From: Hyphomicrobiales bacterium
GTDB taxonomy: Bacteria; Pseudomonadota; Alphaproteobacteria; Rhizobiales; Aestuariivirgaceae
Assembly (NCBI GenBank): GCA_038230015.1
Contig: JBBRNW010000013.1
Location: 1,336-65,335, forward strand
Length of the DNA: 64,000 nucleotides
Reading direction: 5' to 3'
Under the pieces are notes generated by a model. That model worked only from the letters and a program-made list of their open reading frames with translations. It did not search any database and was not told where the DNA came from. Of this stretch, positions 17,695 to 32,299 are shown in pieces (within the stretch, counting starts at the first letter, position 1; each line of letters opens with the position of its first letter). The position numbers were made by a program, and so were the translations under genes.

Positions 17695-17889
17695 ATGGAA
17701 ATGAAATAGTTAGAAGATTTTGTTGCCTTGGCTGAAGCAGAAAACTCACTATCGCCGAACAGATGAGGAATTTTTCAAAGCCTGCGTTATCGAAGAATAA
17801 CTCGGTGCACCTTTTCTTCGGCGCGACAGCAAGCCAGCCCGCGTTTTACTCGCCATCAGTCATAAAATCGAACAGATAAAATCGATGTC
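17695..17889 (+). pseudogene. LysR N-terminal relic truncated at the IS3 end
   Basis: MEMK*LEDFVALAEAEN / AEQMRNFSKPALS / LGAPFLRRDSKP; in-frame TAG where Trp is expected (MExKWLEDF type), plus frameshifts. Confidence 0.6.
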
Positions 17890-19112
17890 TGAATAGCCCC
17901 GGGATTCTTAGACACCCTGCGTGTTCAGTTTTTGCTCCAATTAGAATACGACTGGTGACAGCATCTCGTTTTTAGCGTGTTTGCGTTTTGGATTGTAGAA
18001 CATTTCAATTTATTCGAATACGTCTTGGCGTGTTTCTTCTCTCGTGCGGTAGATTTTGCGTCTGACACGTTCTCGCTTGAGTGGGTTGAAGAAACTTTCG
18101 GTAACGGCGCTATCGTGAGAGTTACCGCGTAGGCTCACCGAATGTCCGAGATTATGTTGCTTTAAAAAAAAGGCCCAGTCGATGCAGGTGATTTGTGAAC
18201 CTGTGTCTGAATGGATGAAGACTTTTATTGTTGGCTTCCTGCGTCAGACAGCCATCAGAAAAGCTTGTAGACCATGTCGGATTTTTCACCGCTTGACAGG
18301 GCCCAGCCAACAACTTTGTGCGCGTAGATATGAATGACAATGGTCAAATGGGCTAAGCTTTTGCTGGTTTTGATCTAAGTGATATGGCTGACTCAAACTT
18401 TATCGGGCGTATCGACTTCAAATTGTCTCGCCAGCGTATTGTCGACAGCGATTGATGGCTTGCCACGACAGCTCATTATGCTGCCTTTATAGCCAATGAG
18501 CGCTTTGATCCCAACCAGCGTTGTCAGTCGCGCTACGCGGTTTAGACAACAGGTCTCGCCATGATCTCTCAAGTCATTATGCAGTTTGAGATAACCATAG
18601 ATCTTGCCACTGTTGTCCCAGGTTTCCCTAAGCAGCTTTGTCTGGCGGTCATCTTCACCACCGCTCTTCCTTATTGGTTGTTTCGCCCCTGCACAGAAAA
18701 CGCTGGGATGTAGGCAGAGCGTCTGACACATGACACGGATCGTGCACTGCAGCTGGTGCGCCTTGATGAACACGTACTTCACTTTGTGTCTTTGGCGAAA
18801 TACGCGGTGGCTTTTTTGCATGTCACGCTCCTCAGTGACACGCGCCAGCTCCTGCTTCAGCCGCCTGATCTCGGCTGACTGGTCATCCTTCACCGCTGTG
18901 CCAGGCAAAGCTGCATGCCGCTTTATCCAAGCGTACAGTGAGTGCGTACTGACGCCCAAGCGCTGCGAAACATCTGCAATAGAATGTCCCCGTTCCGTAA
19001 TTTGCTTGATGGCATCAGTTTTGAAATCTTCCATAAATCTAGGTTGTCCTATGATCGTCTCCTTGCCTCGTTTTGTAAGGGGCAAAGTGTCTACAAATCT
19101 AGGGGCTATTCA
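17890..19112 (-). mobile_element. IS3-family element, 1223 bp, transposase decayed
   Basis: 26-bp terminal IRs at 17890-17915 (TGAATAGCCCCGGGATTCTTAGACAC) and 19087-19112 (rc TGAATAGCCCCTAGATTTGTAGACAC), 22/26 identical. OrfA HTH (GHSIADVSQRLGVSTHSLYAW); orfB with stops, ending ESFFNPLKRE...FYNPKRKH...LSPV. No flanking direct repeat. Confidence 0.9.
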
Positions 19113-19114
19113 TC

Positions 19115-19597
19115 TCACTTCTCAACCAGCTGGAACAAGGTGAGGTCGATCTGGGTCTCATCACGCCGGAAAGCGCGCCCGACCAGTTACGGTCTCGCAA
19201 ACTCTTGGATGAACATTTTGTAGTGATTGCCAGACGCAATCACCCGACTGTCCAACGCAGCCTTGATCTTGACCTATTTTGTTCGCTTGACCACATCATC
19301 GTCTCGCCGCGCGGGGGCAGCTTTACAGGCGCGACCGACACCGCCCTAGAATCGGTTAGCCGAAAGCGACGGGTCACTTTATCTGTTACAAGTTTTCTGA
19401 TGGTACCTGAGATCGTCGCGCGCTCAGATATGATCGCGCTTGTTCCGCAACGCCTCGTGATGGACCGTGCCGACAGGCTGAAAATTATCCAGCCACCACT
19501 TGTCGTGACCGGGTTTACAATCTCGATGGTGTGGCATGACAGAACAAGCGCACATCCAGCCCAAAAATGGCTGCGGGAGCGATTGATGAAAATTTGA
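19115..19597 (+). pseudogene. LysR substrate-binding domain only (NodD/LeuO/DntR-like), 5' truncated by IS3
   Basis: Frame open from the IS edge: LLNQLEQGEVDLGL...HIIVSPRGG...WHDRTSAHPAQKWLRE; no HTH. Confidence 0.8.
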
Positions 19598-19928: not shown

Positions 19929-20972
19929 TTAATTATGCTGCCACATTTCGGGTTGATGGCTCGTATGATCCAGTGCTGCTGCATAGGCCGCTTCAACCAA
20001 TGCGTAAGTTTTCAGATTGTCGCTAATGTCGGTTGCAGCGCGTTCACCGTTCCGAAATGACTTGAATATGTGTCGGCTTGTTTCCATCACAGACCGTTGC
20101 ACCACATGCCAAGGCTTCTGCATCCATGGGGCAAGCGGATTGTCAATCGCAATTCGGGTGTGTGAGGTGCCATCACTCAGGATGATCTCATCATCCGAGT
20201 CCAGAATCAGCGAGCCCTTGGTGCCTTCAATTTCTAGCCGCGTGTGGGGGAAAAGGTCGGGATGACGCTTTGCTGTGTAAGTACATTCAACAACACTCAC
20301 GGCACCGCCAGAATGGCGCAGCAATAGGGTTGCGGTATCATCAGCTTTTACAAGTACGTTGCGCCGTTGGGTTTCGCATGACAGCCTGTCAACCTCACCC
20401 AGAAACACGCGGGCGATGTCGAGCACATGGATGCCAAGATCAAGGATGACCAACCTTTCTTCATCATAAAGATAGGGCTGGTTTCCAAAAACATCGAAAC
20501 CTGTGCGAAAAGCCAGACGGGCCCAACTAACGTCGCCAATGGCGCCACCATCCAATAACGCCTTGACCTTAAGCATGGGAGCCTGAAAGCGGAAATTCTC
20601 ATGCACTGCGAGAAAGCTTTTATGTTCCCTGGCCGTGTTGGCCATCGCTACACAATCCGCCCAGCAGGGTGCCAGTGGCTTTTGTACGATGGCAGCCACT
20701 CCCCTTCTGGCAAGCAAATCACAGATTGCAAGATGACTGTCCATGCGCGTTATCACATCCACAAGATCGGGCTTCACAGTGTCCAGCATTTTTTCAATGG
20801 AGGTGAAAGCCGGCACTCCATGCGCCCTCGAAGCGGCATTGGCCTTTTCAGCGCTTGCGTCACAAACAGCTGCTAGTTCTGCCCCTTCGCCGCGCAGTTC
20901 TTTCCACCCTTGAAGATGGTTTTGTGCAAAAAAACCGCAGCCGATCACGGCTATTTTGAGTGGAGCGCTCAT
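19929..20972 (-). CDS. Gfo/Idh/MocA oxidoreductase, D-apiose dehydrogenase (ApsD)-like
   Basis: IGCGFFAQNH, QKP, VHENFRFQ, FRTGFDVFGNQPYL...DLGIH, PWHVVQRSV, DNLKTYALVEAAY resemble ApsD as recalled. Confidence 0.7.
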   Translation of the reverse strand: MSAPLKIAVIGCGFFAQNHLQGWKELRGEGAELAAVCDASAEKANAASRAHGVPAFTSIEKMLDTVKPDLVDVITRMDSHLAICDLLARRGVAAIVQKPLAPCWADCVAMANTAREHKSFLAVHENFRFQAPMLKVKALLDGGAIGDVSWARLAFRTGFDVFGNQPYLYDEERLVILDLGIHVLDIARVFLGEVDRLSCETQRRNVLVKADDTATLLLRHSGGAVSVVECTYTAKRHPDLFPHTRLEIEGTKGSLILDSDDEIILSDGTSHTRIAIDNPLAPWMQKPWHVVQRSVMETSRHIFKSFRNGERAATDISDNLKTYALVEAAYAAALDHTSHQPEMWQHN

Positions 20973-21287
20973 GTTTTAATTCCGATCAGAACATGGAAAG
21001 TTAGATCTTCCTAAGCTATTCTGGATGCTCCAGATGGTCAATTGTTTGAGAAGCATATAAAAATTTGAGTTTATTCCAGCAAATATTGCTTGGCAGCCCA
21101 CTTGTCGCAAGCCCGGCTTACAATTGCAAACAAGGTCGTTCCAATGTGGATGATTGCTAATATGGACCATGGTGATGTCACAAGCTCTAGCGATTATGAT
21201 TCTTATGTTTGGGCTCACGTTATGCTACGCTTTTCGCCAATTAATGACATCAAGCAAAGCCCCATTGAAAGGGCTGGGCAGTGCATA

Positions 21288-21302
21288 TTGACACCGGTGC
21301 AA
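21288..21302. promoter_or_regulatory. TTGACA -35 element overlapping a CG-centred palindrome (LacI-type operator candidate)
   Basis: TTGACACCGGTGCAA about 20 nt upstream of the lerI-like ATG. Confidence 0.35.
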
Positions 21303-21323
21303 CAGGGCTAAAAGTATGACCCA

Positions 21324-22109
21324 ATGAAAAAGACATCTGATATCTGGATTGGCACCAGCTGGAAAATGAACAAGACATTGGACGAGGCCCTTGTTTTTGC
21401 GCGGGGACTTGCTGCTGCGGAAGCCGCGCGTAAGTCCCGTGTTCAACGGTTTGTCATCCCGGCTTTTACTGCTTGCCGTCAGGTGAAGACCGTATTGGCA
21501 GCAACTTCTATCAAGGTGGGGGCACAAAATATGCACTGGGCCAATGCTGGCGCTTGGACTGGCGAGGTTTCTCCTCTCATGTTGAAGGACTGCAATCTCG
21601 ATCTTGTTGAGCTTGGGCATTCCGAGCGGCGTGTTTTTTTTAATGAGACCGATGAAACTGTGGGCCTCAAAACCGAAGCTGCGGTGCGCCATGGTCTAAC
21701 GCCGCTGATCTGTGTTGGGGAAACACTTTCGCAGCGTGATAGCGACCAAGCCAAGGATGTGCTGGCTCACCAGGTGAAATCGGCGTTAGCGAAACTTGAT
21801 GGTGAGCAAAAGACTGCCGCCCTTGTTTTTGCCTTTGAACCCGTGTGGGCCATTGGCGCCCAAGGAATTGCAGCAACCGCCGACTATGCAGATGCACGGC
21901 AGGCAGAAATAGTCAGTGTGGCGGCAGATATTTTGGGCCGGCGCGTACCTTGTCTCTATGGTGGATCAGTGAATTCTGATAACTGCCAAGAGCTGATCGT
22001 GTGCCCGAACATTGACGGTCTGTTCATTGGGCGTGCGGCATGGAATGTCGAAGGCTATCTCGACATTTTGGCAAAATGTGAAGCAACACTTGGAGAAGAC
22101 TCATCATGA
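21324..22109 (+). CDS. lerI: TIM-family L-erythrulose-1-phosphate isomerase (LerI/EryH-like)
   Basis: [12 protein letters not shown]-terminus (not glycolytic AGNWKM), [23 protein letters not shown]; ATGA overlap with the RpiB-family gene. Confidence 0.7.
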
Positions 22110-22558
22110 AAATTGCAATTGCAGGTGACAGTGCTGGTGAAGGGCTGGCCAAAGTTCTCGCCCTTCATTTAAGCGAAAAACACGACGTTGCGGAGATCTC
22201 TCGAACCGAGGCTGGCGCTGAAAGTTTTTACGCCACTCTGGCAGACCGTGTTGCAAACGATGTGCTGGCCAGAACATACGAACGGGCGATTTTGGTGTGC
22301 GGAACAGGCATTGGTGTCTGCATTGCGGCAAACAAAGTGCCGGGCATTCGGGCAGCACTTACCCATGACACCTATTCGGCCCAACGTGCTGCGCTGTCCA
22401 ACAACGCGCAGATTATCACAATGGGTTCTCGCGTTATTGGCCCGGAATTGGCCAAGGCAATCGCTGAAGCTTTTCTGCAAGAAACTTTTGATCCCAATGG
22501 CCGTTCAGCTGAAAATGTTGCGGCCATCAACGCGGTTGACGCAAAATACACCAAATGA
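22106..22558 (+). CDS. derI: RpiB/LacAB-family D-erythrulose-4-phosphate isomerase (DerI/EryI-like)
   Basis: [59 protein letters not shown]. Confidence 0.7.
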
Positions 22559-22621: not shown

Positions 22622-23782
22622 ATGCTTATAGGACTGCGCCTTCAACCAGAACACCGGGTCTATGCTGCTTTTGCCTTACATGCTTTTGCGATGGGAAACA
22701 TTTTTCCGCGCATGCCTGATATCAAAGCCGCGATGGGTGTGGCTGAAGGGGTCTTGGGCTTGAGCCTGATCGGCGTTCCGCTAGGCACGCTTATTACTCT
22801 CACTTTTGCAGCACCCACGCTTGAGCGGATCGGGTTTCGGAAATCCCTGCTCTCACTCATGCCGTGGGTTGCCATACTTTATGCCTTGGCAGTTTACGCA
22901 TCACATCCGGTTTTATTCTTTGTGATGTTAATCCCCATCGGTATGTTGATTGGCTGTATTGAAATCATGGTCAATCTTGAGGCCGACAGAACGGAAGCCC
23001 TGATCAAGCGGCGAATCATGAACCGCGCACACGCATTTTGGAGTTTCGGTTTTTTTGGTGCCGGGTTTTTTGGAGCTTCAATGGCGCAGTTGGGCATTTC
23101 ACCTCAACTGCATCTTGCTTTGATCATTCCGGTTTCAATGATTGGAATTGCAGTGTTTCTTGGTCAGTTTGAACCAGCACCCACACGCGTGGATGAGACT
23201 GATGGGGTGAAGCCTAGATTTGCCTTGCCAACCTGGGGCATTCTTGTGCTGTTTGGGGTTACACTTTCAGCCATGCTGATGGAGGGTGCCGGCATTGATT
23301 GGTCGGCTATTTATATGCGCAGCACCTATAGTTCCGGACCCTTCATGGCGGGAGCCGCCGTGGCTGTGGTGGCACTTTCGCAAGGCATTGCACGATTTTT
23401 CATCGATGGCTTTATTGACAAACATTCGCCCGGCGGCGTTGCGCGGCTTTTGCTGTTTGGCTTGGCCGCAGGTATTATCTTGGTGTTTTTAAAACCATCA
23501 CCTTTCCTCTCGCTCTTGGGTTTTGCATTCATTGGGGTTGGAACCAGCGCCATTTTTCCAATGGCAGTTTCAGCAGCAGCACAGCGAACGGATCGCTCTT
23601 CTGCGATCAATGTCGCTGCCTTTGTTCAAATCGCCTTTACGGCTTTTCTGATCGGTCCACCACTGTTGGGTTTGGTTGCCGAACATTGGGGTATTGAATG
23701 GGTTTATGGAGTGGCCCTGCCTTTGGTGGTTTTAAGCATTCTCACGTCTGGATCGCTGGGAAAGAAAACGACCCCGCATTAA
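22622..23782 (+). CDS. MFS transporter
   Basis: Hydrophobic 386 aa; IMNRAHAFWSFG and WSAIYM motifs. Confidence 0.85.
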   Translation: MLIGLRLQPEHRVYAAFALHAFAMGNIFPRMPDIKAAMGVAEGVLGLSLIGVPLGTLITLTFAAPTLERIGFRKSLLSLMPWVAILYALAVYASHPVLFFVMLIPIGMLIGCIEIMVNLEADRTEALIKRRIMNRAHAFWSFGFFGAGFFGASMAQLGISPQLHLALIIPVSMIGIAVFLGQFEPAPTRVDETDGVKPRFALPTWGILVLFGVTLSAMLMEGAGIDWSAIYMRSTYSSGPFMAGAAVAVVALSQGIARFFIDGFIDKHSPGGVARLLLFGLAAGIILVFLKPSPFLSLLGFAFIGVGTSAIFPMAVSAAAQRTDRSSAINVAAFVQIAFTAFLIGPPLLGLVAEHWGIEWVYGVALPLVVLSILTSGSLGKKTTPH

Positions 23783-23946: not shown

Positions 23947-24324
23947 GTGATAGAACGAATTAAGCAATGGGCACGCACCATAAAGCGGGATGTGGTTGCG
24001 CTCTACATAGCAGGACGCGACCACAGAACACCGTGGCATGCAAAAGCCATTGCAATCGCGGTTGCCGCATATGCCATTAGTCCAATTGATCTCATACCTG
24101 ATTTCATTCCAATCCTAGGTTATCTTGATGATCTAATAATTGTTCCGCTTGGCATCATGCTGGCAGTAAAACTCATTCCAGCGCAACTCATGGCTGAATT
24201 TCGTGAAGCTGCTGTAAGGCGGGGCCGCTTGACGCCGCATTGGGCAGGTGCTGCTGCTATTGTAGCCATTTGGGGTATTGGATTAGTTGCAGTCACGTGG
24301 TGGACAATTCATTACCACTGGTAA
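23947..24324 (+). CDS. YkvA/DUF1232 membrane protein
   Basis: YAISPIDLIPDFIPILGYLDD signature. Confidence 0.9.
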   Translation: MIERIKQWARTIKRDVVALYIAGRDHRTPWHAKAIAIAVAAYAISPIDLIPDFIPILGYLDDLIIVPLGIMLAVKLIPAQLMAEFREAAVRRGRLTPHWAGAAAIVAIWGIGLVAVTWWTIHYHW

Positions 24325-24390: not shown

Positions 24391-25293
24391 ATGAAAACTC
24401 CTTCTCCCAGTGTGATGCCTAACGCCTTGAAGAAAGGCATGACTTATGCGGCGTTGCTTTTATGGTCGCTGATTTGTATTTTTCCGCTCTATTGGATCAG
24501 TATCACCAGTTTCAAGGCGGTTGATATCATCGACCAAGCACCGACTTACCTTCCGTTTGGTGACTTTAACCCTACGCTGGATGCCTGGCGGTTTATCTTG
24601 GGTGACGTGACAGAGAATCTGGTTTGGCGTGCTGTTAATTCAGTGGCCATCGGAATCATCTCAACTCTGGCAACATTGGCGCTCGGCGGCATGATGGTTT
24701 ATGGCGTGACCCGTTTTAAATCCAAGATCAACGGTTCCAAAATTATTGCAGCAGCACTCGGCACCCGCATCTTGCCACCTGTGGTTTTGGCTTTGCCACT
24801 TTACCACATGGCCCAACTGACGGGTACACTTGATAGTTTGGTCATTCTGATTTTTGTTTATAGTGCCATTAATCTTCCCATCGCCATTTGGCTGCTGGCT
24901 CCTGTCTTTGGTTCGCGCGCTACAGACCAAGAAGAGGCTGCACAATTGGACGGTGCCTCACATTTTCATATTTTGTTTTTCATTCTGCTACCGACGGTTA
25001 AAACGGCACTGGTGACAGTGGGTCTTTTGATTTTCCTCCAATGCTGGAATGAATATCTGTTTGCTGCGTTTCTAACCTCTGATCACGCATTGACTTTGCC
25101 ACCTTGGATGGTGGGGCAGCTTTCCATGAAGGAAGCCCAAACAGGTGGGGGTGCCGAAGAAGTGGCACATCTTGCAGCAGCAACAGTGCTGATGATTTTG
25201 CCTGTGCTGGTTTTTACAATTTTTATTCAGGGTTCTTTGAGAAGTGTATTTTCAGTTCCAACGCGTGAATCCCGCGCAATCAGAAATCCTTAA
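24391..25293 (+). CDS. Carbohydrate ABC permease (MalG-type), extra paralog convergent with the ABC operon
   Basis: FPLYWISITSFK...PTLDAWR; EAA loop EEAAQLDGAS; WNEYLFA. Confidence 0.85.
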   Translation: MKTPSPSVMPNALKKGMTYAALLLWSLICIFPLYWISITSFKAVDIIDQAPTYLPFGDFNPTLDAWRFILGDVTENLVWRAVNSVAIGIISTLATLALGGMMVYGVTRFKSKINGSKIIAAALGTRILPPVVLALPLYHMAQLTGTLDSLVILIFVYSAINLPIAIWLLAPVFGSRATDQEEAAQLDGASHFHILFFILLPTVKTALVTVGLLIFLQCWNEYLFAAFLTSDHALTLPPWMVGQLSMKEAQTGGGAEEVAHLAAATVLMILPVLVFTIFIQGSLRSVFSVPTRESRAIRNP

Positions 25294-30386: not shown

Positions 30387-31520
30387 CTAACAAGTATTTT
30401 TCGTAAGATGATGTGCGGCAACCAGCGCTTCGAGCTGTTTAAACTGTGCTGCCGGATTTTTAAGCTTCACCCAAGAAATGAAATCAACAATACGGCGCTC
30501 AATTTTGTAAGCGTGGTTTTGTGCAATGTCGCTGATGCGGTGTTTCAGAAACGGATTTTCAAACCGTTCCAGCGTGCTTGATACGTATGCTTTTGCGGCC
30601 TCTCGCATATGGTGCACAGCAAATCCAGGAATGACTTCACGTTCATAGAGTAACAAGAGCCGCTGCTTTATCTCGCGGTCCTGCAGTATCGCAAACACCG
30701 TTTCGTCCACCATGCGATGTTCTGTTTTCCAGATTTCAGCCAGAAAAGTATGACCGAGGTTTAGAATATGCAACTTGAGACGCAAATAAGGTTCAAGATC
30801 ATCAGTGTAAACAATAGAGGGATGGTGCAATGGCTCGACAAAACCAGGTAGGCGCTTAATCGCCCATAAGCCGTAAGGTTCGCCTATGGCGCCAACAGGC
30901 TCCAGTGCTTCTGACACAATGCGGTCCACCAATGTGTCACAAAACATCACCTTGCGCGCCAGCCAGGTTTTGAAGCTGACAGAATCTCCCGCTGTTTCAG
31001 AAAGCCCGGTCACGATTTTTGACAAAACCTGACCGTTGTTGCTGACGAGCTCGCAAGGCAGAATCGTCAAAGATTTACGATTTTTCTCAAAGCGATGCAA
31101 AAGCAGAGCGTGCAATTTTGCCGGAAAACTAGGGGGCGGGAGTTGCGGAGATATGTCATGCTCGGCTAGACTAAGGTCATATCCCGTTTCGCCAACATTG
31201 CTGATGACTATTTCGGTTTCATGGGCAAAGACATGTTTCAGTTTTTCCCACTCTGAGTTCGCATCCAGCGCACAGACCACGCTGGTCACATGAATGGTTT
31301 CATCAACAGGTTTGCCGTTTTCCAACCCCCTCAAGCGAACAGGATAGCCACCGGCCGTGTTGAAACCATCAACTCGATTGGCACGCAAGGCTGAACTGGA
31401 TGTTTTCACGATGGTGATGGGGCCAATGTCTTGTCCGGCTACTCGTGCTTCATGCACAAAAAGATCCGCATGTGCCTGTAAAAAGCGGCTGGTGCCAAAT
31501 TGAAGGATGCGGTGGGTCAT
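30387..31520 (-). CDS. Mannitol dehydrogenase-family oxidoreductase (UxaB/UxuB-like)
   Basis: ILQFGTSRFLQAHADLF, LPCELVSNNG, DTLVDRIV, LKLHILNLGH, RFENPFLKHRISDIAQNH. Confidence 0.85.
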   Translation of the reverse strand: MTHRILQFGTSRFLQAHADLFVHEARVAGQDIGPITIVKTSSSALRANRVDGFNTAGGYPVRLRGLENGKPVDETIHVTSVVCALDANSEWEKLKHVFAHETEIVISNVGETGYDLSLAEHDISPQLPPPSFPAKLHALLLHRFEKNRKSLTILPCELVSNNGQVLSKIVTGLSETAGDSVSFKTWLARKVMFCDTLVDRIVSEALEPVGAIGEPYGLWAIKRLPGFVEPLHHPSIVYTDDLEPYLRLKLHILNLGHTFLAEIWKTEHRMVDETVFAILQDREIKQRLLLLYEREVIPGFAVHHMREAAKAYVSSTLERFENPFLKHRISDIAQNHAYKIERRIVDFISWVKLKNPAAQFKQLEALVAAHHLTKNTC

Positions 31521-32299
31521 TTCAAATGGCAGCCAGCAGTTCTTTTCTGAGCCAGATATTCATCAATCACAGTCTGCAATCTCGACCCTGAAAAACTGGG
31601 GAAATGACCGCCATGAATTGTACCCACAGGAAATGTCATCAACCGCCGCAGTGATGTTTCATAGTCACCAAGATCGGAATGGTAGGCATCATCAATCAGG
31701 GGACCATCATAAACAATATCACCCGATAGCAATGTAGCCGTTTTCTTTTCCCACAGCGCGATCCCGCCGGGTGAATGTCCGGGTGTGTGAATGACCTCGA
31801 AAACCCGGTTACCCAAATCAATTTCATCGCCATCGTTTAAAAGTCGTGTGGCGGGGGCGGCAAGAATTTTATAATCTTCAGTGCGCCAGCCTTCCGGCAC
31901 ACCATCAAACATTTCAAGTGTGGCATAGCGGTCAGCTGCCGTAAGATGGTTAAGCGGATTTGCCAAAATCTCTGCCTCGGCGCAGTGGATGCAGCGATTG
32001 CTGAATTCGTGGTGATTGCCGATATGATCAAAATGGCTATGGCTTGCCACGCAGATGATTGGACGTTCTCGAAGTTCTGCGACAGCGCTGAGAAGCGGAA
32101 AGTGCCCAAGACCAGTATCAAACAGCAAATCCGCATCACGGCCCTGCACATGCCACATGTTGCAGCGGAAAAACGTTTTGATCCACGGCTCGTGAACAAG
32201 ATTGATCTCGTTATCGTTCTTCACAACTTCATACCAGCGATCTTCGGTGATGATGGGAAGGTTTGTCATCGTGTCGCTCTCATTTCCATTTGATTTCAA
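31517..32299 (-). CDS. Metallo-beta-lactamase-fold hydrolase (start may be ATG 32269)
   Basis: SHSHFDHIG (HxHxDH), HTPGHSPG, SGDIVY, GGHF; ATGA overlap with the downstream dehydrogenase. Confidence 0.85.
   Translation of the reverse strand: MKSNGNESDTMTNLPIITEDRWYEVVKNDNEINLVHEPWIKTFFRCNMWHVQGRDADLLFDTGLGHFPLLSAVAELRERPIICVASHSHFDHIGNHHEFSNRCIHCAEAEILANPLNHLTAADRYATLEMFDGVPEGWRTEDYKILAAPATRLLNDGDEIDLGNRVFEVIHTPGHSPGGIALWEKKTATLLSGDIVYDGPLIDDAYHSDLGDYETSLRRLMTFPVGTIHGGHFPSFSGSRLQTVIDEYLAQKRTAGCHLK

Follow-up and report, generated by a model that had tools for sequence, protein, structure and literature searches.

The 64,000-nucleotide stretch of Hyphomicrobiales bacterium DNA analyzed here (contig JBBRNW010000013.1 of assembly GCA_038230015.1, positions 1,336 to 65,335; hereafter the window) carries a gene for a Gfo/Idh/MocA oxidoreductase divergent from a lerI-derI pair, which raises the question of whether the three genes form one functional unit of D-apiose catabolism. 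Our analysis favors a different explanation, which we consider probable, namely that two separate things were set side by side by rearrangement: a retained lerI-derI module and a stranded paralog of the D-apiose dehydrogenase (ApsD) family. The three genes are as follows.

19929..20972, minus strand: intact gene for a Gfo/Idh/MocA oxidoreductase of 347 aa (GFO_IDH_MocA N- and C-terminal Pfam domains)
21324..22109, plus strand: lerI (eryH), TIM family, 261 aa (Pfam TIM, 244 bits)
22106..22558, plus strand: derI (eryI), RpiB family, 150 aa (Pfam LacAB_rpiB, 143 bits)

A preliminary description of this locus had placed the open reading frames (ORFs) of the divergent trio at precisely these coordinates, and each was recovered with the expected Pfam domains. 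The lerI and derI frames share 4 bp, as in known operons, and a 351-bp spacer separates lerI from the dehydrogenase gene. No lactonase, ApnO-type, RuBisCO-like, OiaK-type (four-carbon-acid kinase) or Dak-type gene was recognized among the ORFs scanned from 12 to 36 kb, in agreement with the same description, which had recognized no other pathway genes near the trio.

The dehydrogenase belongs to the same Gfo/Idh/MocA subfamily as ApsD and has the family motifs in common with it. Its product matched PDB entry 5uhw with 267 bits over 331 residues, the next PDB match reaching 65 bits. The entry is titled merely ‘oxidoreductase’, and we take it to be ApsD of Agrobacterium radiobacter K84; ApsD is reportedly a D-apiose dehydrogenase, EC 1.1.1.420. 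When compared with the apiose cluster of a Rhizobium phaseoli plasmid, 5uhw scored 634 bits against the Gfo/Idh/MocA gene, in a cluster ordered NanR, oiaX, four-carbon-acid kinase (OiaK), TIM, RpiB, PGDH_C protein (ApnO), ABC transporter, Gfo/Idh/MocA, 624-aa protein and DhaK/DhaL. An initial suspicion that 5uhw might be ApnO was dropped, since ApnO has a KARI-like fold and Pfam PGDH_C. The motifs QKP, HENFR and DLGIH are kept in the window dehydrogenase, and its homology predicts an aldose 1-dehydrogenase that depends on NAD(P)+ and yields a sugar lactone. The claim that the gene is ApsD-like was thus upheld: 5uhw is its only close solved or characterized relative, and many of its homologues (59-76% identity) carry the Joint Genome Institute (JGI) name ‘D-apiose dehydrogenase’, a label that is automatic and family-wide. 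The composition of the gene looks native (GC 0.52; GC at third codon positions, GC3, 0.52), with no sign of recent import.

The window gene is not the closest ApsD relative in its own genome (G000; 3.11 Mb, 48 contigs, 99% complete). We searched the whole genome by tblastn with the proteins of the R. phaseoli cluster and annotated the matches, recovering a cluster outside the window.

G000:C1:208976-219347 (L020:5977-16348): apiose/apionate-type cluster (tblastn and domain annotation)

The Gfo/Idh/MocA protein of this cluster on contig C1 is 46% identical to R. phaseoli ApsD and scored 334 bits to 5uhw, compared to 267 for the window copy, whose identity is about 41% with ApsD of the R. phaseoli cluster and 38% with the C1 copy. 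The C1 cluster also encodes an ApnL-like protein, an ApnO carrying PGDH_C (49% identical to R. phaseoli ApnO) and, between apnL and apnO, a 286-aa xylose-isomerase-like TIM barrel with Pfam AP_endonuc_2 as the OiaC candidate; a CUT2 sugar ABC transporter and a NanR-type regulator complete it. The tblastn match on C1 to the 624-aa protein of R. phaseoli was at 37%. Immediately upstream of the cluster is an AbiEi/AbiEii toxin-antitoxin pair (L020:4178-5820). Another genome, G013, has the same core, its adjacent OiaC-like, ApnO and dehydrogenase genes being 65%, 83% and 62% identical to those of C1; its ApnL-like gene (51%) is on a different contig from this core. The preliminary description had left open whether the remaining pathway genes were elsewhere or replaced, and the apnL-like, OiaC-like and apnO genes of C1, together with a weak Dak-family candidate for LerK on contig C14, point to the former. 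Tblastn with the R. phaseoli proteins found no OiaX or DhaL homologue in the genome; its sole four-carbon-acid kinase match was weak (27%, on C10), and its sole Dak-family protein is the fused Dak1-Dak2 protein of 540 aa on C14. The neighbors of the Dak gene (L207, G000:C14:78000-92662) are iolE, a GntR/FCD regulator, another AP_endonuc_2 protein, a distant Gfo/Idh/MocA gene and an ABC ATPase.

We further placed the window protein in trees of its family, using FastTree on 226 sequences and IQ-TREE on 48, and both gave the same picture. Rooting with a distant paralog on C14 was unreliable (branch length 4.8), so that the direction of evolution is left at nesting alone. A basal grade consists of proteins with ApnO, OiaX, OiaK or ApnL neighbors, namely those of R. 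phaseoli, G007, G018, G024, contig C27 of G062, Acidisoma, a Geminicoccaceae metagenome-assembled genome, C1 of the present genome and G013. The window protein sits inside a derived clade (SH-aLRT 97-100) that includes none of the 11 context-verified ApsD-type sequences. Both paralog types, canonical and derived, occur together in G000 (canonical on C1) and in G062 (canonical on C27). The preliminary description had held that clustering away from ApsD would speak against its reading, and this was borne out in one half only: the protein lies outside every context-verified ApsD lineage, and it stays inside the radiation of the ApsD family. Several otherwise invariant positions are altered in it (T74R, Y259D, P276N and S313D, R. 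phaseoli numbering), and across the whole derived clade Arg replaces an otherwise invariant Thr, with Tyr259 and Pro276 also changed. The identity of about 41%, the derived subclade without ApnO, OiaX or OiaK neighbors and the closer paralog in the same genome set the window copy apart from ApsD. Judged by these comparisons, the window dehydrogenase is an ApsD-family paralog and not the dedicated ApsD of the genome, and its role as the ApsD of the pathway, implied in the preliminary description, is not supported, a closer copy lying inside the apnL/apnO cluster.

The gene contexts of the derived clade vary. The homologue in Mesorhizobium (56% identity) lies in a cluster in which FCD, OtnK and OtnC genes are divergent from PanE-like, ABC, MBL, Zn-ADH, FAH, Gfo/Idh/MocA, ABM and ApnL-like genes; these include an FCD regulator, a 3-oxo-tetronate kinase, a class II aldolase, a reductase (the PanE-like gene), an FAH-family hydrolase and the ApsD-family dehydrogenase, with an ApnL-like neighbor and without ApnO. 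This sugar cluster, on the plasmid of Mesorhizobium sp. INR15 (NZ_CP045498.1, ~26.2-39.9 kb; L005/L227), is conserved, with syntenic loci L022, L024, L027, L031, L037 and L069. The cluster is apparently undescribed and may lead from an aldose to 3-oxo-tetronate. An MBL hydrolase gene of the window (31517-32299) was considered as the counterpart of the MBL gene of this cluster and did not match it. In G009, G014, G074 and G122 (52-55%) the context consists of GntR, CUT2 ABC, SDR, Gfo/Idh/MocA, an RraA-like aldolase, a second Gfo/Idh/MocA and a D-2-hydroxyacid dehydrogenase. This G009-type context is recurrent (L204, G009:C18:113000-132999; L205, L222 and L224), and its binding protein is 40% identical to that of the C1 cluster. 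The copy of the G002 group (56%) is orphaned beside an MCP gene. The G062 copy (72-73%; its contig is identical to that of P0011) has AraC and an ABC transporter with a Bmp-type binding protein as neighbors, and the G104 copy (67%) is truncated to 259 aa, beside a GMC oxidoreductase (L220:9547-10326, G104:C14); decay of the subclade seems to be under way in some genomes. These two, at 73% and 67%, were the only close copies recovered in the genus-wide search, and the best matches were 64% identical in a metagenome scan and 56% in a scan of genome contigs. The ApsD family thus holds a large uncharacterized derived radiation that annotation pipelines label ‘D-apiose dehydrogenase’ without support, and the label calls for caution.

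The assignment of the two isomerases, also made in the preliminary description, proved well supported by sequence comparison, as LerI/EryH and DerI/EryI. The lerI product matched PDB entry 11ef, ‘L-erythrulose-1-phosphate isomerase’, with 404 bits, compared to 178 bits for the best genuine triose-phosphate isomerase, and shares 67% identity with the TIM-family product of the apiose cluster in R. phaseoli. With the latter, the other TIM-family gene of the genome, on C5, has an identity of only 36%; it is presumably the housekeeping tpiA. The derI product barely cleared the cut-off of 240 bits of the NCBIfam DerI equivalog model NF051858 (242.2 bits; 241.5 in the genome search), and scored 241 bits to PDB 5ifz, which was deposited as a ribose 5-phosphate isomerase and which we take to be Brucella EryI. 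The window derI is the sole RpiB-family gene of the genome, a separate rpiA being present on C12. The window pair thus resembles LerI/EryH and DerI/EryI of the Brucella and Rhizobium erythritol locus and of the oxidative apiose/apionate routes in its strong matches to the two solved structures, in its overlapping frames and in being a second copy beside tpiA and rpiA.

The spacer and the flanks of the trio carry the remains of other genes, and a transporter gene follows derI.

21087..21316, plus strand: eryC-like relic (xylose-isomerase-like TIM barrel; tblastn)
19205..19597, plus strand: LysR-type regulator gene, 5’-truncated (Pfam LysR_substrate; six-frame read)
17888..19116, no strand assigned: IS3-family transposase debris (HTH_Tnp_1, HTH_21, NF033516)
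22622..23782, plus strand: MFS transporter gene (Pfam MFS_1), starting 63 bp past derI

The spacer relic, overlooked in the preliminary description, is 51% identical to residues 175-242 of a 310-aa protein of G008 (genome-wide E-value 4e-13, tblastn), an eryC-like protein that carries Pfam AP_endonuc_2 in its full-length form. The relic lacks about 174 N-terminal residues and is broken by an internal gap and by a shift of frame; its C-terminal 14 residues are matched in a different frame, and it stops 7 bp short of lerI. Behind the dehydrogenase lie the truncated LysR gene and the IS3 debris. The LysR remnant consists of the C-terminal substrate-binding domain only (profile positions 76-204 of 209), without the helix-turn-helix domain. 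The longest ORF of the IS3 debris (18393-19085, minus strand) encodes 230 aa, which corresponds to about 60% of the length of a complete transposase, and matched profile positions 2-218 of 369 of NF033516 with 121 bits, under the cut-off of 160. The DNA of the IS3 stretch matched several relatives in the genus at 71-95% (81% in G022 over the full stretch), and a second partial copy is present in the same genome on C18.

We inspected the neighborhoods of eight lerI-derI loci and about 12 dehydrogenase loci in the genus, and of 160 loci from other taxa and metagenomes; the closest homologues (74-78%) lie outside this set. The dehydrogenase adjoined lerI-derI in none of the genus loci, and over the 160 loci from elsewhere, LerI or DerI genes were confined to the canonical apiose clusters of R. 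phaseoli and Acidisoma. No syntenic relative was found with a 13.9-kb DNA query among 120 genomes of the genus. Because of the eryC relic in the spacer, the LysR and IS3 wreckage and the absence of the pairing from the inspected relatives, we conclude that the adjacency of the dehydrogenase and lerI-derI is secondary and was made by rearrangement; a functional unit, as implied for the divergent arrangement in the preliminary description, is not supported. An argument from neighboring genes would mis-assign function here, the true pathway partner probably being the paralog on another contig.

The lerI-derI loci of the genus point to the unit from which the window pair may derive. In G101 a DeoR gene is followed by colinear MFS, eryC, lerI and derI genes, with eryC intact and without adjacent eryA or eryB (L215:5792-9800, G101:C30); the MFS gene, just upstream of eryC-lerI-derI, is a homologue (64%) of that of the window. 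No upstream kinase was obvious for this compact tetrulose-phosphate module. An intact eryC also adjoins lerI in G082, and G008 has FGGY, GlpD-like, eryC-like and SorC genes together with DeoR-lerI-derI. DeoR-lerI-derI was found in G047, and two FGGY kinases adjoin lerI-derI in G062.

Compared with the erythritol locus of Brucella and Rhizobium, the pair in the window stands without eryA, eryB, eryD and eryR; of eryC only a relic is left, and derI is followed by an MFS gene. No eryA ortholog was found in the genome (the best FGGY matches are 25-27% identical) and no eryB ortholog either, the sole GlpD-like gene being glpD, adjoining glpK. A trio of DeoR, GlpD-like and FGGY genes on C15 was considered as a hidden ery cluster and ruled out, as it is glpD-glpK. 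With neither an eryA nor an eryB ortholog recovered and only a remnant of eryC, these genes do not amount to an erythritol (eryABCD-eryR-eryH-eryI) locus, and erythritol would be unable to feed the lerI-derI module.

In our proposal, lerI-derI, probably with the MFS gene, would be what survives of an earlier eryC-lerI-derI tetrose unit, namely its lower module. LerI would convert L-erythrulose-1-phosphate to D-erythrulose-4-phosphate, and DerI would convert the latter to D-erythrose-4-phosphate. The likeliest supplier of this module would be the C1 apiose/apionate cluster, with its ApsD-like, ApnL-like, ApnO and OiaC-like proteins, ABC transporter and NanR regulator. An L-erythrulose kinase would be needed between the C1 cluster and LerI, the only candidate, a weak one, being the fused Dak protein on C14. 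The greater part of an ApsD-ApnL-ApnO-OiaC route thus appears to be encoded in the genome, LerI-DerI being located in the window and the kinase being uncertain. EryH-EryI are often sited apart from ApnO-OiaC-LerK (Watanabe et al. 2026, PMC13753588), and the split layout described there for the Aurantimonas altamirensis route, ApnO-OiaC-LerK and EryH-EryI, resembles that of the present genome, in which the upper genes are on one contig and lerI-derI elsewhere; the C1 cluster differs from the A. altamirensis layout by having no LerK, the only Dak-family candidate lying in an inositol cluster and under the model cut-offs. We read the case as an unremarkable split version of a pathway already known, accompanied by a spare paralog.

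Several observations weigh against this reading, both in its assignment of the pathway to C1 and in its separation of the window dehydrogenase from apiose. The C1 ApnL-like protein scored 512 bits to the NCBIfam D-apionate lactonase model, under the cut-off of 750. No NCBIfam model matched the C1 OiaC-like protein above its cut-off (L-ribulose-5-phosphate 3-epimerase models gave 27-28 bits vs 317 and 200), and we assume its role from its position and from what we take to be its family. The Dak gene on C14 lies beside iolE in the inositol cluster, under the model cut-offs. Of 68 columns without variation among 10 context-verified ApsD-type proteins, the window protein keeps 57, and it is 38-44% identical to verified ApsDs, which are 45-51% identical among themselves; as it is only slightly more distant and keeps these columns, the protein may yet be active on apiose. 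In G062 the dehydrogenase gene is convergent with an adjoining gene 65% identical to the OiaC-like gene of C1, a hint of some role connected with apiose, and ApnL-like genes (33-38%) adjoin many members of the wider derived clade. For the substrate of the window dehydrogenase, we give an aldose other than apiose somewhat better than an even chance; apiose is possible and rather less expected, and a protein with no role is very improbable.

With these points in mind, the window dehydrogenase could still be the D-apiose dehydrogenase of the organism, in a divergent functional unit with lerI-derI and with the middle steps encoded elsewhere. ApsD (5uhw) as the nearest characterized or solved relative, the JGI name of the 59-76% homologues, the retained catalytic motifs and invariant columns and the OiaC-like gene adjoining the G062 ortholog would all fit; we nevertheless regard this explanation as unlikely, given the closer ApsD-like gene within the C1 apnL/apnO cluster, the gene wreckage in the spacer and downstream flank, the absence of the adjacency from the genus loci, LerI or DerI genes appearing outside the genus only in the R. 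phaseoli and Acidisoma clusters, and the automatic nature of the JGI name. The dehydrogenase might instead serve an unrelated sugar pathway, as in the sister clades of Mesorhizobium and of the G009/G014 clusters, having lost its partners here and having no link to tetrose phosphates. This is a possibility to be taken seriously, if not one that we expect: the sister-clade neighborhoods have no ApnO or Oia genes, the Thr to Arg, Tyr259 and Pro276 changes run throughout the derived clade, and other copies are orphaned (the G002 group, by the MCP gene) or truncated (G104, 259 aa). On the other side, the neighborhoods vary between subclades, so that none is simply transferable to the window gene, ApnL-like and OiaC-like neighbors recur in the clade, and partner genes of such a pathway are not in the window.

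The relics and insertion sequence debris on its flanks, the loss of an apparent regulator (the truncated LysR gene) and the truncated copy in the related G104 would also suit a stranded gene heading to decay and without a current role, as would the result of a promoter scan limited to the sigma-70 consensus, which found no promoter-like site in the spacer. Decay seems very unlikely, however, for a full-length open frame with intact motifs and native-looking GC and GC3. The derived clade, comprising the window protein, the G062 ortholog and the 59-78% metagenomic homologues, may alternatively represent a new aldose-dehydrogenase specificity that evolved from ApsD, perhaps providing here another way, so far undescribed, into the LerI-DerI funnel, for which the neighboring MFS transporter would import the sugar or a tetrulose; we offer this only as a speculative and distinctly unlikely possibility. 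The explanation by rearrangement, a retained lerI-derI module beside a stranded ApsD-family paralog, is the one that we prefer.

Downstream of the trio, the MFS gene is probably co-transcribed with derI. It is followed by a DUF1232 gene (23947-24324, plus strand), which precedes a lone ABC permease gene (BPD_transp_1; 24391-25293, plus strand) that lacks, on its own strand, a binding-protein or ATPase partner. The lone permease and the DUF1232 gene may be a further remnant of the rearranged region.

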